Positions 7,464-25,175 of a stretch of DNA of 64,000 nucleotides are shown one piece after another. A program made the translations under genes and the position numbers. This DNA is from an uncultured Nitrososphaerota archaeon (lineage in GTDB: Archaea; Thermoproteota; Nitrososphaeria; Nitrososphaerales; Nitrosopumilaceae). Numbering within the stretch: position 1 is the first letter of the stretch; every line of letters starts with the position of its first letter. The stretch is from contig CAWGPD010000001.1 in NCBI GenBank assembly GCA_963824385.1, positions 224,001-288,000 of the forward strand, read 5' to 3'. Under the pieces are notes generated by a model. That model was not told where the DNA came from and did not search any database. It saw only the letters and a program-made list of their open reading frames with translations.

Positions 7464-7817
7464 ATGCAAGGTTCAAGTGCATTAGACAAATATGATTTAA
7501 AAAAAGCCCATAAAGCTTTGAAGATGTTACTTATTGATAGAAGTAATGAATTTCGAGTATTTGCCCACGGTATTGGATACCCAGTAAATACTGAAAACTG
7601 GGAAGTAATTGTATTAAATTTCTGCCTTGATTTTGTAGATTGTTTCAAAGACATGTCAGGTGAGACTCCACTTGACCATAATCAGATCCACAAATGCATG
7701 ACTCACATTAGACAAATTACTAGAGGCAAGACAAACATGACCGAAGTTACACACCTTGAGAATACCGCGTACCTCATTGCAGAAGATTTCAAATCAATTT
7801 ACAAAAGAATGGAGTAG
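7464..7817 (+). CDS. Hypothetical protein
   Basis: 117-aa ORF with normal composition. Confidence 0.65.
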   Translation: MQGSSALDKYDLKKAHKALKMLLIDRSNEFRVFAHGIGYPVNTENWEVIVLNFCLDFVDCFKDMSGETPLDHNQIHKCMTHIRQITRGKTNMTEVTHLENTAYLIAEDFKSIYKRME

Positions 7818-7867
7818 AAAGTATATTTCATACTCTAAAGATTATACATTCAGATTAGCATCATAAA

Positions 7868-8596
7868 TTAATTATACGAGCTAAAAGAATGAAAACTATT
7901 TTTACCATCAGGTCTGTCTTGCCTTTCTTTGAGTAGTCTTGTAATATGTTCTAATATTTTATGAGCATGAATTATAGACTCGGACTTGAGCTTGGCTCCT
8001 GAAGCATCACTTTCCACAACTGCGTATCTTGAGACAAGTTTTAGATTTACACGATACTTGTCACTACTTGCCCATTGCAGCACATACCCACCATCCCCTT
8101 GGATAATTCCTATCCAGCGCAGAGTTCCAAACCATTTTCCATGTAATTTGCGTATAACATCCTCTACTTTGATCTCAGTTGGAATGTACAGCTGAAGTAT
8201 CTGTTCGAATTGTTCATACTGGTCAGATATTCCATTGGATAAATTTTCAAGATCAATTCTAGACTTTTTGACAAGTATTGAATCCAAATTCTTTGCAAGT
8301 CTGTAACCATGAACTGTTTTTTTTATCAAGCCTGCACTTGCTAGTCGGTGTAATGAGCGTGTTAGGCTTTGTTGATGAATCCCAAGCTTTCGAACAAGAC
8401 CATTAAACGTATACTGGTTATCACTAACATCACTGTCCTGATTTAATACAGACAAGACTTTTTTGTCGTTTGTCTGAAAATCATCAAGGGATAAATCAGT
8501 TGAATTATCAATTATAATCTGGACCATCTTATCATCCACTTTGACCTCTTTTTCGTTTTCAGGCTTTGCTTTTTCTTGTGATTCTTTGTTTTCCAT
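7868..8596 (-). CDS. Winged-helix DNA-binding domain protein
   Basis: TFNGLVRKLGIHQQSLTRSLHRL..AGLIKK, a wHTH pattern. Confidence 0.7.
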   Translation of the reverse strand: MENKESQEKAKPENEKEVKVDDKMVQIIIDNSTDLSLDDFQTNDKKVLSVLNQDSDVSDNQYTFNGLVRKLGIHQQSLTRSLHRLASAGLIKKTVHGYRLAKNLDSILVKKSRIDLENLSNGISDQYEQFEQILQLYIPTEIKVEDVIRKLHGKWFGTLRWIGIIQGDGGYVLQWASSDKYRVNLKLVSRYAVVESDASGAKLKSESIIHAHKILEHITRLLKERQDRPDGKNSFHSFSSYN

Positions 8597-10628: not shown

Positions 10629-10664
10629 AATACGTTCAACATAATCAAGGTAATTTAAGACCTG

Positions 10665-20218: not shown

Positions 20219-20349
20219 AATTTTAGCCTCAATCTTGGTACAGCATTTACACCCATATCCACAATCCTTGGATTAATCCCAATCCACTTGTCTTGATTGT
20301 GGCATATTTTTTGTACATCATACATAATAATAAGGAAAAAAATAATGTG

Positions 20350-20493
20350 ATGGTAATGAAAAATCTTGTATGTGGAATGGAAGTAACCGAAAAGAAACAC
20401 ATGACAAAATACAATGGAAAAGACTTTCTCTTTTGTTGTGCCCATTGCAAAACAACTTTTGAAAAAAATCCAAAGCAATTTGTTAAAGAATAA
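20350..20493 (+). CDS. Stand-alone YHS/TRASH domain protein (candidate copper chaperone)
   Basis: VCGMEV...YNGKDFLFCCAHCKTTFEKNP. Confidence 0.85.
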   Translation: MVMKNLVCGMEVTEKKHMTKYNGKDFLFCCAHCKTTFEKNPKQFVKE

Positions 20494-20683
20494 CATTGAG
20501 GGTCATCATCCATCACGATGTTGTTTCTTATTTGACTAGAGAGAGACATCTCAATCATATGCTGCAATAACATTTGCAATAAATACACATTTGTTGTACA
20601 ATGAAGATTTACTTCATAGTTCAAATTCAAATACGATATCCTCCTATGATATTTTTATACAAGTTATGCGAAGAAGAGGTGAG

Positions 20684-20935
20684 ATGGGTCACCACAGCCT
20701 TGCTGATAACATAATGATGCTTGTGATGTCAGTTGCAATGCTTACAATGGTAATGTCAATGTTAATCATGGGAGTCAATTGGTCCATAGTACTCCTAATT
20801 CTATCAGGAGTATTGACAGCTGTAACAACTGTCTTTTATTCATTCCAGTCTGCCAGATGTATGTGTGGAACCAATCAATACAATAAGCAATCAAACAAAG
20901 CGATATCTGACGCTACATGTGATTGTCCTAAGTGA
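20684..20935 (+). CDS. Small two-TM membrane protein with His/Met/CxC motifs
   Basis: GAGGTG RBS, MGHH start, Met-rich TM1, CMC and CDC in the tail. Confidence 0.65.
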   Translation: MGHHSLADNIMMLVMSVAMLTMVMSMLIMGVNWSIVLLILSGVLTAVTTVFYSFQSARCMCGTNQYNKQSNKAISDATCDCPK

Positions 20936-21203
20936 AAAATGATGAATAAATATAGCACATGCGATTCAACGATATAACATTTGTAAGTCAAGAAAAAACT
21001 ACATGATGTAGATATTCCAGTTTTAAAAAATGGTACCATCCCAGGAATTTTACTAAATGAGGAGTAATATCAAACATCAATGTCATTGTACTTTTGTGTC
21101 AAAGTTAGTATCTCCAGAATATTTTGCAGAAAGTGTATGAGTTCCAATCAATAATGACGAGGAGGACATTGTAGTCATATGAGTACTAGTTCGAATCGGA
21201 GTG

Positions 21204-21599
21204 TTATTTTCTCCTTTGACTAATTATAACCCATGCAAATGGAATTCCTACCAGACATGCTGTGAGCATAGTCATCCATTCCAAAAAAATGGGTATTTTT
21301 TCATTTGAAGATATTCCCAACCTGTCAGACATTTCGCGCATACCAGACATGTTGGACATACCAGCCATTCCATGCATACCAGACATGTTGGACATACCAG
21401 CCATTCCATGCATACCAGACATGTTGGACATACCAGCCATTGTCTCACTTGATATCATTTTAATCGAGTATGCAGAATAGTATTGTTCAGCATTTACTGT
21501 ATGAAGTTGAGAAACTAATACAAATACAATACCTACGAAAATGATCGAAAAAAGACCAAACCAAACACAGGCCAAGTTTTTCTTTAACATAGAGGCCAT
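21204..21599 (-). CDS. Membrane-anchored Met-rich repeat protein
   Basis: N-terminal hydrophobic segment, (MAGMSNMSGMHG) repeats, C-terminal TM and RRK. Confidence 0.7.
   Translation of the reverse strand: MASMLKKNLACVWFGLFSIIFVGIVFVLVSQLHTVNAEQYYSAYSIKMISSETMAGMSNMSGMHGMAGMSNMSGMHGMAGMSNMSGMREMSDRLGISSNEKIPIFLEWMTMLTACLVGIPFAWVIISQRRK
21338..21441. repeat. 36-bp in-frame tandem repeat, about 2.9 copies
   Basis: Unit cataccagacatgttggacataccagccattccatg. Confidence 0.9.
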
Positions 21600-21637
21600 T
21601 CGTAACACTCGTTTATTTCTTTTAGAAATTAAAATCA

Positions 21638-21660
21638 GTGGTACAATCCACGAATGAATT
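21638..21660. promoter_or_regulatory. Island motif half-site between the Met-repeat gene and the metallothionein-like gene
   Basis: Minus strand reads TGTACCA-CTGAT-TTTAATT. Confidence 0.6.
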
Positions 21661-21714
21661 ACCAAAATTGAGAATCAAGGACATGCATATCTATGGATTT
21701 AAACAATAAACAAT

Positions 21715-21822
21715 ATGACACATTGTAATTGTGGAGCTAAACATGAAACTACTTGTAGTTGTCAAAAAACTGGCAAATGCGACTGCGGCAGTAGTTGCAC
21801 CTGCAAAGATTGCAGATGTTAA
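21715..21822 (+). CDS. Metallothionein-like protein (35 aa, 10 Cys)
   Basis: Manual translation MTHCNCGAKHETTCSCQKTGKCDCGSSCTCKDCRC*: five CxC pairs, no aromatic residues, immediately upstream of copA. Confidence 0.8.
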   Translation: MTHCNCGAKHETTCSCQKTGKCDCGSSCTCKDCRC

Positions 21823-21893: not shown

Positions 21894-23999
21894 ATGGCGC
21901 GAGACCCCATATGTGGAATGTTTGTAGAGGAAAAAAATGAGTCATTAAATTTTGAAACAGATGGAAGAAGGTATTATTTTTGCTGCAAAAGCTGCCTAGA
22001 CGAATTCGCCATGCCAGAAAAAGAACTCAAAAAACTAAAGAGTCATGTCGTACTGGCTATCATTTTAACAATTCCCACAGTTTTGCTAACATATATCGCA
22101 ATTATACCTCACCAATTAAACCCCTACGTACTTTTTGCATTAGCAACACCAGTCCAGTTCTGGCTCGGTTGGAGATTCTATCAGGGTACATATGATGCAT
22201 TCAAGCACAAGATGACTAACATGGATGTCCTAATCGCATTAGGAACATCCACCGCGTGGGGATACAGCACTGTCATAACTTTTGTGCACAATGTAGTACC
22301 AATGGCAGATGTATACTTTGAAACATCTTCAGTCATAATCACGCTTTTGTTAATTGGAAGATTACTTGAGAGTAAGACCAAGACAAGAGCATCAAAGGCT
22401 GTAAAAAAACTACTGGATCTTAAACCAAGATTTGCTCATGCCATAAAAAATAATCAAGAGGTAGAGGTACCAGTTGAGCAAGTACAACCAGACGATATAA
22501 TCATAGTTCGTCCAGGGGAAAGAATACCTGTAGATGGAACAATAATTGAAGGAAGATCGTCAATAGATCAATCTGCGATAACAGGTGAGAGTATCCCAGT
22601 AGAAAAAGAAGTTGGAGATGATGTCATTGGAAGCACCATCAACAAAGAAGGCGCATTCAAATTCAAAGCAACCAAGGTAGGAGACGAATCTGTCTTATCG
22701 CAAATAGTAAAGCTTGTCGAGGATGCAAAATCAAGCAGGGTTCCGATACAAAAGCTTGCTGATAAAATATCATCATATTTTGTACCACTTATAATTACAA
22801 TAGCAATAATTTCTGCACTGGGGTGGTTCTTTGTAGGTGGAATTGGCCTTACTTTCTCAATTCTTGCATTTGTTTCAGTAATAATAATTTCTTGTCCATG
22901 TGCGCTTGGAATTGCAACACCTGCAGCTCTAATGGTAGGAGCAGGCAAGGCTGCAGAAAACGGCATCCTGATAAAGGGTGGTGAAAATCTTGAAAATGCA
23001 AGAAAGGTTCAGATTATAATATTCGACAAAACCGGGACTTTAACCAAGGGAATTCCTTCTGTTACTGATGTTGTGACTATAAACGAGATGAACAGCGATG
23101 AGATATTACGCCTTGCCGCAATTTCAGAGAAAAATTCAGAGCATCCCCTTGCAAGAGCTATAGTAAGACATGCAAAAAAAACAAATCTCGTAGTTTCAGA
23201 TCCAGATTCGTTTAAATCCATCACAGGTAGTGGAGTTGAAGCCCAGTACGGAGATCATCAGATATTGATAGGAAATAGAAAATTCATAACAAATAACGGC
23301 ATTACAATTGATGAAAAAATGGAGAAGAAGATTCAGGAATTTGAAGAAGGCGGAAAGACTACAATCATCATATGTATTGACAAAAAATTATCAGGAATAA
23401 TTGCAATGATGGATACGATCAGTGACAACGCACTAGAAGCCATACAGAGGCTCAAAAAGAATGGAATTCAAGTAGCAATGCTTACAGGAGACAACACAAA
23501 GATTGCCAATGCAATAGCAAGTAAACTTGGAATAGACCGAGTTTTCGCAGAAGTATCACCTCAAGAAAAAGAGAACGTCATAGCAAAAATAAAGCAAGAA
23601 GGAAAGACTGTAGCAATGGTGGGAGATGGAATCAATGACGCCCCCGCACTTGCAGCAGCTGATTTAGGAATAGCATTTGGAAGTGGAACAGATATTGCAA
23701 AGGAGACTGGAGGGATTATACTTGTCAAAGATGATTTAAGAGATGTTGTAACAGCAATAGAGCTAAGCAAGAAAACTGTTGCCAAGATTAAACAAAATCT
23801 TGTACTGTCATTTGTTTACAACTCGGCATTAATTCCAGTTGCAGCTGGCGCACTTGTTCCAATATTTGGCCCTCATGTGTACATGATCTTGCCGTTTCTT
23901 GCAGCTGGCGCAATGGCAACAAGCTCCATAACGGTAATTAGTAATTCCCTATTATTGAACAGGTACAAACCAATGAGACAGAGGTTAGAAATAAAATGA
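21894..23999 (+). CDS. copA: Copper-translocating P1B-type ATPase with N-terminal YHS/TRASH domain
   Basis: [40 protein letters not shown], MxxSS. Confidence 0.93.
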
Positions 24000-24283: not shown

Positions 24284-24676
24284 ATGCAGAAAGAAAGCCA
24301 TCTATTGGAAAATAGGCCAAAGCTTTTTACCATAATCATTTTTTCTGTAATCGCAATTTTTGCAGTACCAGTAATACTTCCTCATGTATTTCACGAATTT
24401 CAAGTCTTCCACATACTACTCCACTTAAGCGGAGTTGCAATAGCCAGTTTTCTTACCATAGTTTCTTCAGTAGCATATGCAAGAATTAAAACAAAAAGGC
24501 TAATGTTTACAATGATAGCATTTGGCTTATTTGCAGTTGCAGAGGTATTCTCAGTCATCGATGCAGCATGGCAGTATACTTATTATTTCGGGTCCGTCTC
24601 AGCAGATGAGGTAGGACATATTCTTGAATTATGCACATTGGGGATGTTTGCATTGAGTGTGTTTAGGAGAGATTAG
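24284..24676 (+). CDS. Four-TM membrane protein with several His residues
   Basis: Hydrophobic helices, PHVFH, FHILLH, GHILE. Ends 1 nt before the regulator gene. Confidence 0.75.
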   Translation: MQKESHLLENRPKLFTIIIFSVIAIFAVPVILPHVFHEFQVFHILLHLSGVAIASFLTIVSSVAYARIKTKRLMFTMIAFGLFAVAEVFSVIDAAWQYTYYFGSVSADEVGHILELCTLGMFALSVFRRD

Positions 24677-24677
24677 A

Positions 24678-25175
24678 ATGGATAGAAGTATAGAGATCAT
24701 AAACATTGTAGAGAAAAATCCAGGGATAAAGTTTCGAGAGATTATGAGAGAGTCCGGACTGAAAAATGGAGTTCTAAGTTATCACGTAAGAAAATTAGAA
24801 GAGAGTGGTAGTGTAAAGATAGATAGAAAGTCAGGAGAGACCCGATTTTATCCCCTTTGCGTTACAGATGAAGAATCAAATCTTATAACAAGTCTTAGGC
24901 GAGACACTCAAAGATATATTTTATTATCTTTGCTTGATGGTAAATCACTTGCATTTAATGAGATAGTTTCGAAAGTCAGAAAATCACCTTCGACTGTTTC
25001 TACATTCCTTGGAAGACTTGTTGATGATAACATAGTGGAAATTAAGATCGTGGGATTAAAGAAAGTCTACTTTTTAAAAAATACAGACATGGTTCGTGAG
25101 ATAATTGAAAAATACAATCCAATTCTTCTTGAAAGAACTGCATACAACTTTGCAGACACGTTTGCAAACCTTTAG
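24678..25175 (+). CDS. Double winged-helix transcriptional regulator
   Basis: NPGIKFREIMRESGLKNGVLSYHVRKLE and a second HTH, FNEIVSKVRKSPSTVS. Confidence 0.85.
   Translation: MDRSIEIINIVEKNPGIKFREIMRESGLKNGVLSYHVRKLEESGSVKIDRKSGETRFYPLCVTDEESNLITSLRRDTQRYILLSLLDGKSLAFNEIVSKVRKSPSTVSTFLGRLVDDNIVEIKIVGLKKVYFLKNTDMVREIIEKYNPILLERTAYNFADTFANL

Follow-up and report, generated by a model that had tools for sequence, protein, structure and literature searches.

A small metallothionein-like gene beside copA in a Nitrosopumilaceae archaeon, a candidate cytoplasmic copper buffer

We have analysed a window of 64,000 nucleotides from the genome of an uncultured archaeon of the Nitrosopumilaceae (G000). 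The window contains a short ORF that starts with ATG, encodes a product of 3.7 kDa and reaches its TAA stop codon directly after Cys35. It is followed by copA and preceded, on the opposite strand, by a gene for a Met-repeat membrane protein, and two different DNA elements lie between the divergent genes (Table 1). The original prediction had described an unannotated ORF of 35 aa that contains five CxC pairs and two His but lacks Phe, Tyr and Trp, ends 71 nt before copA and is divergent from a Met-repeat gene. Reading and translation bore out each of these points, with the ATG of copA at 21894. As for the word unannotated, a collection of about 15 billion predicted proteins has no identical entry, and the description holds for that collection.

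Table 1. Positions of the genes and DNA elements at the locus, in window coordinates except for sites marked G000
Feature	Position	Strand	Remarks
Metallothionein-like gene	21715..21822	+	35 aa, 10 Cys, [CxC]x7[CxC]x5[CxC]x3[CxC]x2[CxC]
copA, Cu(I)-type P1B ATPase	21894..23999	+	N-terminal YHS/TRASH (CCxxC), CPC, YN, MxxSS, DKTGT, HP
Palindrome TTATCA-N4-TGATAA	21659..21674	.	Here TTACCA-AAAT-TGAGAA (2 mismatches); 56 nt before ATG
TATA-like position	21686..21693	+	TTAATTA in relatives; degenerate here (CATATCTA); putative promoter
Copper-limitation motif match	21637..21654	-	15/18 positions vs Nitrososphaera viennensis consensus; directly before TATA-like box of divergent gene
Divergent Met-repeat membrane protein gene	21204..21608	-	Probable start GTG 21608, judged from relatives; longest ORF from 21665
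Palindrome regulon sites	G000 C1:4016, 30322, 50133, 61832, 162559, 221258; C3:315590; C5:103, 10965, 11538; window 14464		

On codon-level evidence, the ORF is a real gene under purifying selection. Comparison of the gene with seven relatives over 33 codons gave a pN/pS of 0.20-0.31 at a pS of 0.71-1.11, and one pair differed by 10 synonymous and 0 non-synonymous changes. Third codon positions were variable in 32 of the 33 codons, against 14 first and 15 second positions, and nine Cys stay invariant although the synonymous sites have reached saturation. Contigs from three other sequencing runs (X5, X6 and X9) span the ORF completely or for the most part and show zero letter differences, and the ORF lies outside the coverage of the contig from run X8. 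Where a habitat is given for the sequencing runs with this DNA, it is mostly that of a soil metagenome. At window position 21194, which is intergenic, one base is absent from the contigs of runs X5, X6 and X8, possibly an assembly slip or a strain variant. A plasmid tblastn search gave no match for the gene, and a scan for sigma-70 promoters and terminators, with a promoter model unsuited to archaea, found none. Among the 15,335 short ORFs (25-80 aa) of the genome, this is the single case with five CxC pairs. Another Cys-rich ORF, of 46 aa with 8 Cys (CxxC, CVCVCPFC), lies at G000:C4:534481-534621 (-) and probably encodes a small zinc-finger protein.

Metallothioneins are proteins of less than 100 aa with about 15-30% Cys arranged in CxC, CC or CCC motifs, according to the available part of PMC8476144. 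With its five CxC pairs and 28.6% Cys in 35 aa, the protein encoded here falls within that description. Aromatic residues are rare or absent in metallothioneins, and none occurs in this protein or in the aligned core of 10 relatives. Searched against Pfam and NCBIfam, the 35-aa protein reached the cut-off of no family. Below the cut-offs, the relatives matched PF12749 at E 0.11-1.1, and a look-alike from Vicinamibacteria matched PF02067 at E 0.45. The best PDB sequence matches were metallothionein domains, all of them weak (E 0.011-2.2; 1m0j 0.011, 1dft 0.026, 9q7p 0.05, 1t2y 1.9), and a search of the PDB with the single sequence gave metallothionein matches at E 0.08-0.15. In the ESM Atlas the best scores were at most 0.85, with metallothionein clusters at 0.77-0.84 among them, which serve as leads. 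An AlphaFold2 model built from a 10-row alignment with no metal had a pLDDT of 65.5 and a pTM of 0.28, values that are uninformative for an apo Cys-rich peptide, and a Foldseek search of the PDB with this low-confidence model gave no match. By these sequence tests, the protein is metallothionein-like in make-up and Cys spacing and is a member of no curated family.

A homologue search with a check of copA synteny, proposed along with the original prediction, found conserved relatives and a tight linkage. Strong profile matches occurred in 6 of the 63 genomes of the genus, which is probably Nitrosotalea-like. Two of the six hold a second member, either another full copy or a sister copy. A scan of metagenomes gave 17 loci; two of them, L121 and L122, were dropped as falling short of full membership in the family, which left 15. 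Once duplicates had been collapsed, 19 distinct loci were left, and copA adjoins the gene in 16 of them. A same-strand copA follows within 1.1 kb in 15 loci, in one of these as an 81-aa fragment only, and copA lies upstream of the gene in one further locus. Two contigs end too early to tell, and in the non-adjacent locus, that of G069, copA is about 20 kb off. The linkage survives two CopA architectures (YHS-led and, by reading, HMA-led) and an inserted gene in G009. In the 10 aligned proteins, nine Cys as well as G7, H10, G20, K21, G25 and S26 are invariant, and most of the relatives have 41-46 aa and a tail that is His-rich or of the Cys-His kind.

Searches of wider collections, limited by the length and low complexity of the protein, gave 1 match among 2 candidates (word-index protein search with alignment) and 1 match (profile search of 1.84 billion representatives). 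In a class-wide sample, searched with a first and narrower profile, strong matches were confined to this genus. The gene is accessory: a strong P1B match was present in 49 of the 63 genus genomes and the gene in 6. On a single-gene tree of 35 rows, which left out G071 (too short) and G074, the four included carriers require four changes, and we consider therefore that the module is patchy through transfer or loss. The GC profile showed no island edge.

The combination of CPC, YN and MxxSS is the Cu(I) pattern of P1B ATPases, and the CopA of the window scored 608.6 bits against TIGR01511 (cut-off 397). The small gene and copA are likely co-transcribed. The region upstream is a copper island, whose genes encode a CopC-CopD fusion, a YHS protein and exported proteins rich in Met. 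A small membrane-like ORF at 20591-20935 has two CxC pairs near its C-terminus and no Pfam family. At locus L044, a 100-aa protein with 23 His and no Pfam family (7701-8003) is divergent from the second metallothionein-like copy of G071.

Between the divergent genes, the original prediction had placed a single operator site. A conserved operator-like region does exist, but alignment of the upstream regions of the relatives resolved it into two different elements rather than one copper operator. The palindrome occurs at -55 to -58 in 17 of the 19 loci, followed in the relatives by a TATA-like box about 11 nt on, and it is likely that it serves as a regulator site for the small gene and copA. 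The genome contains 8 perfect palindromes against 1.04 expected, compared with 0-2 at other spacings, and 20 of the 30 near-perfect ones fall in the 27% of the genome that long ORFs do not occupy. They precede genes for an M50-CBS protein, Usp, four CBS proteins, TFB, PAC2, a TPR protein, one P-type ATPase and one plastocyanin-like protein, and three of the CBS genes share the palindrome distance of 56-58 nt. Since its other sites belong mainly to genes of the CBS, Usp and TFB types, the palindrome is not copper-specific and makes no case for copper induction. This gene set presumably resembles the low-oxygen or dormancy regulons of bacteria.

The other element matches the consensus motif for copper limitation in N. 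viennensis, as given in the available part of PMC7785015. Its score was equalled in 1 of 300 shuffles, and 12 of the 19 loci carry the motif at -77 to -79, none of them with more than 4 mismatches. In the island, 11 same-strand copies lie between window positions 10663 and 24251 (10.6 to 24.3 kb), and eight of these sit 28-47 nt before a gene start, most of them followed by a TATA-like box. The genes behind them encode CopCD, exported and Met-rich proteins, and a membrane protein plus an ArsR-like HTH protein. A count of 9 against 0.21 expected is partly circular, as the pattern was tuned after the sites had been seen. The ArsR-like gene at 24657-25175 is a candidate regulator. Considering that the motif is oriented to the divergent gene, it would serve that gene, and its orientation rules it out as the driver of the metallothionein-like gene. 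It is the only element here with published copper evidence, and it marks limitation, not excess.

In most relatives, the divergent position is held by a DsbD-YHS fusion of 375-400 aa that has its N-terminus in common with the Met-repeat gene. Proteins of the DsbD-YHS class are up-regulated under copper limitation in N. viennensis, according to the part of PMC7785015 that was available. The fusion seems, from the sequences compared, to have been split or replaced in this genome and in G071. A stand-alone YHS gene at 20293-20493 is about 80% identical to the C-terminal domain of the fusion. The palindrome and the limitation motif are 4 nt apart; mutual exclusion between them is plausible.

The distribution of the gene was compared with that of CopR (Lrp-HTH plus TRASH), the canonical copper sensor of archaea, which is present in 35 of the 63 genus genomes and was not found in G000 (86% complete), G071, G064, G009 and G074. 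The gene stands beside copA solely in genomes where CopR was not found. Among the 41 genomes with a strong copA match, it occurred in 4 of the 7 without CopR and in 1 of the 34 with CopR (Fisher p 0.0016, a value overstated by non-independent kin and several incomplete genomes). The single carrier with CopR is G069, in which the gene is not beside copA. G074, whose broken copA match places it outside the 41, contains the gene and gave no CopR match. The palindrome was rejected as a CopR site: in CopR-linked loci it was not found in the stretch from copR to copA, and the genomes with the palindrome before copA gave no CopR match.

Two sister subfamilies were observed. One of them, family B, comprises acidic proteins of 44-47 aa with nine Cys and a CxC-x5-CxC-x3-CxC core; it is represented in this genome at G000:C4:502960-503100 (-) and also at L055, L080 and other loci. 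Of 223 Nitrosopumilaceae genomes, 219 gave a match to its profile, against 0 of the 177 genomes searched from the rest of the class. Some of the matches are a fused form, and the proteins carry, where named, only the name hypothetical protein. An hhalign comparison of family B with the query family gave a probability of 89 and an E of 2e-6. The fused form is a protein of about 455 aa in which the family B domain makes up the C-terminal tail (L157:2349-3716, L158:2388-3755, L159:2510-3868 and L160:994-2568). In all four fused loci fetched, it adjoins cofD and has no Pfam family; by reading, it starts with a signal-like segment and has a membrane-like one late in the chain. A third subfamily of 35-38 aa, with the pattern CGC...C...CxC-x5-CxC-x3-CxC, is found at L053:90-203, L057, L058, L060, L061, L069, L070 and L074. 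One copy lies directly before a CDF transporter, and others lie near HxlR-like regulators or Met-rich island genes. Look-alikes of 35-38 aa also occur at 12 loci (L094-L105) in MAGs of Vicinamibacteria/Acidobacteriota; in two of the six loci inspected they have metal-related neighbours, L098 preceding a YHS-CopA and L104 having a metal ABC permease on one side and TolC/CusB-like genes on the other.

Based on these sequence comparisons, we favour with moderate confidence the reading that the gene encodes a single-domain metallothionein that is co-expressed with CopA and acts as a cytoplasmic Cu(I) buffer. The original prediction of a cytoplasmic copper buffer or store keeps part of its support, namely the real gene, the metallothionein-like make-up and Cys spacing, and the tight copA linkage, but loses the Cu-specificity of the CxC pairs and the single copper operator. 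It had taken CxC richness as the hallmark of Cu-thioneins. This feature is not Cu-specific, and the closest pattern is that of the vertebrate beta-domain, which has been solved also in Cd forms. As the protein seems to have no signal peptide, its location would be the cytoplasm. There the peptide would fold around Cu(I), its probable physiological metal, via nine or ten thiolates, and it would buffer Cu(I) while CopA, probably made from the same transcript, exports it. Together, the gene and copA may form a safety valve or counterweight to the neighbouring copper-uptake island, in which copCD and the exported Met-rich proteins are under the limitation motif. A general stress regulator could switch both genes via the palindrome, in place of CopR.

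On the other hand, the peptide could be a copper store or carrier for supply, which hands Cu(I) imported by CopCD to the YHS domain of CopA for copper enzymes outside the membrane. Such a role would agree with the copper-limitation motif that the other genes of the island carry at 11 sites, with the rise of a copA and a Csp store under copper limitation in N. viennensis (available part of PMC7785015), and with the export of Cu for enzyme assembly that partial sources describe for some P1B ATPases. In addition, no CopZ or CopM was found adjoining copA at this locus. However, we consider supply unlikely, in that the limitation motif faces the divergent gene and not the metallothionein-like gene, the known chaperones (in the sources as available) adopt an HMA or TRASH fold and offer one site rather than five CxC pairs, and most copA genes in the genus do without the 35-aa gene.

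We give an equally small share to a metallothionein that prefers Zn or Cd, or a general thiol or redox buffer of a broad stress regulon, that happens to share the island with copA. The nine invariant Cys would suit a divalent cluster of the M3Cys9 kind that the vertebrate beta-domain forms, and the invariant His10 and the His-rich tails of the relatives fit Zn and Cd equally. The palindrome is common to CBS, Usp and TFB genes, and a sister subfamily stands before a CDF transporter in G074 and, by reading, near HxlR-like regulators. Set against these points are the linkage to a Cu(I)-type ATPase at 16 of 19 loci, which persists across two CopA types and changing neighbours, and the copper-specific character of the surrounding island.

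It is very improbable that the gene encodes another kind of Cys-rich mini-protein, such as a small zinc-finger protein, an Fe-S carrier or a copA leader peptide. No family or fold match was found, and the occurrence of the nine-Cys domain as the tail of a membrane protein would be compatible with a module for sensing or docking. But the protein has no CxxC knuckles and no hydrophobic core, with 29% Cys all in CxC pairs; the gene has promoter-like elements of its own; and the second copy in G071 is downstream of copA, which is impossible for a leader peptide. A chance reading frame or dead remnant, which the lack of 7 residues relative to the commonest relatives and the degenerate TATA position might suggest, can practically be set aside in view of the purifying selection at the codon level, the palindrome retained at the same distance from the ATG and the recurrence of the short CxC-ended form in L106 and the second G071 copy, by which the 35-aa form is a variant and no truncation.

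Returning to the cytoplasmic Cu(I) buffer, we tentatively sketch a wider picture, which has some chance of being correct, though one well short of even. The Nitrosopumilaceae may have a metallothionein family of their own, with a beta-domain core by descent. It would consist of a near-universal nine-Cys core gene and an accessory copper branch, the 35-aa gene. This branch would form a CopR-independent module with a back-to-back promoter switch, the uptake genes with the limitation motif on one side and metallothionein-CopA with the stress palindrome on the other, and the buffer would replace the copper sensor.

Metallothioneins have reportedly been described from Nitrososphaera-type archaea. 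Our literature search, which had subscription journals mostly outside its scope, found no paper on an archaeal metallothionein, and the phrase 'archaeal metallothionein' returned 0 papers. Given that report and this scope, we make no claim to the first archaeal metallothionein. Ammonia-oxidising archaea depend heavily on copper. The available part of PMC7785015 treats the regulation of the cop genes in these archaea as an open question, and in that part metallothioneins are mentioned 0 times. The metallothionein class itself is well known; what the present analysis contributes is that the operator-like region is resolved into two elements, that one of these matches a published copper motif, and that the gene and CopR nearly exclude each other. 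The two elements and the near-exclusion predict a second route of copper-export control. The 35-aa gene is the family member with the clearest metal context, and a peptide of 35 residues can be synthesised or expressed, which makes an archaeal metallothionein directly testable.

Among known systems, the fungal single-domain Cu-thioneins, represented by 1t2y, which we take to be that of Neurospora crassa, share a single short CxC-rich domain with the archaeal protein (weak match, E 1.9-8.6). The archaeal protein, however, is longer (1t2y has 25 residues), has 9-10 Cys and His, and is encoded in a prokaryotic operon context. Bacterial SmtA and BmtA are likewise prokaryotic and small, and Cys and His are possible ligands in both cases, but no SmtA match was obtained for the 35-aa protein in Pfam (where PF02069 is presumably the SmtA/BmtA family), NCBIfam or the PDB. 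SmtA and BmtA are defined, in the literature available in part, by a zinc-finger-containing fold, whereas the archaeal protein lacks the residues of this fold and its context is copper rather than zinc. The mycobacterial Cu-thionein MymT is also a tiny, Cys-rich and initially non-annotated prokaryotic ORF, one tied to copper resistance, and the review available in part presents it as a precedent for an unannotated Cu-thionein ORF. MymT is known to be Cu-induced and Cu-binding, whereas for the archaeal protein Cu binding is a prediction.

In the archaeal cop cluster CopR/CopT-CopM-CopA of Pyrococcus and Saccharolobus, a Cu-type P1B CopA also lies behind a small gene of metal-binding type, and a palindrome before BRE/TATA resembles the one described here (TTNNCAWWWTGNNAA, the Pyrococcus CopR motif in the available part of PMC7830388). 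The palindrome here has a 4-nt spacer, one base more than in Pyrococcus, the small gene is neither TRASH nor HMA (no Pfam match to HMA or TRASH/YHS, unlike the CopZ/CopM chaperones), and CopR was not found in the genome.

The closest likeness is to the vertebrate beta-domain (1dft, 2mrt, 1m0j and 9q7p; Cys pattern as printed in the available part of PMC8476144). Residues 14-35 of the archaeal protein show [CxC]x5[CxC]x3[CxC]x2[CxC], which corresponds to Cys 1-8 of the beta-domain, and both are small, have Gly fourth in the 5-residue spacer and are free of aromatic residues. In contrast, the ninth Cys of the beta-domain (x2C) and the linked alpha-domain are missing from the archaeal protein, which for its part has one more CxC at the N-terminus and an invariant His, and the sequence matches are no better than weak (E 0.011-0.5). 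If five CxC blocks are placed at random, the 5,3,2 spacing arises with a probability of 0.0026 for that one pattern, but many metallothionein patterns are available and cluster chemistry favours such spacings, so this value does not establish homology. Cys-rich sequences of low complexity also match each other readily, and thus the likeness may be convergence. The family, the two sister subfamilies and the Vicinamibacteria look-alikes all have this core without variation, including the Gly at the fourth place of the 5-residue spacer. Should the archaeal protein and the beta-domain prove homologous, their likeness would be relevant to how metallothioneins originated.
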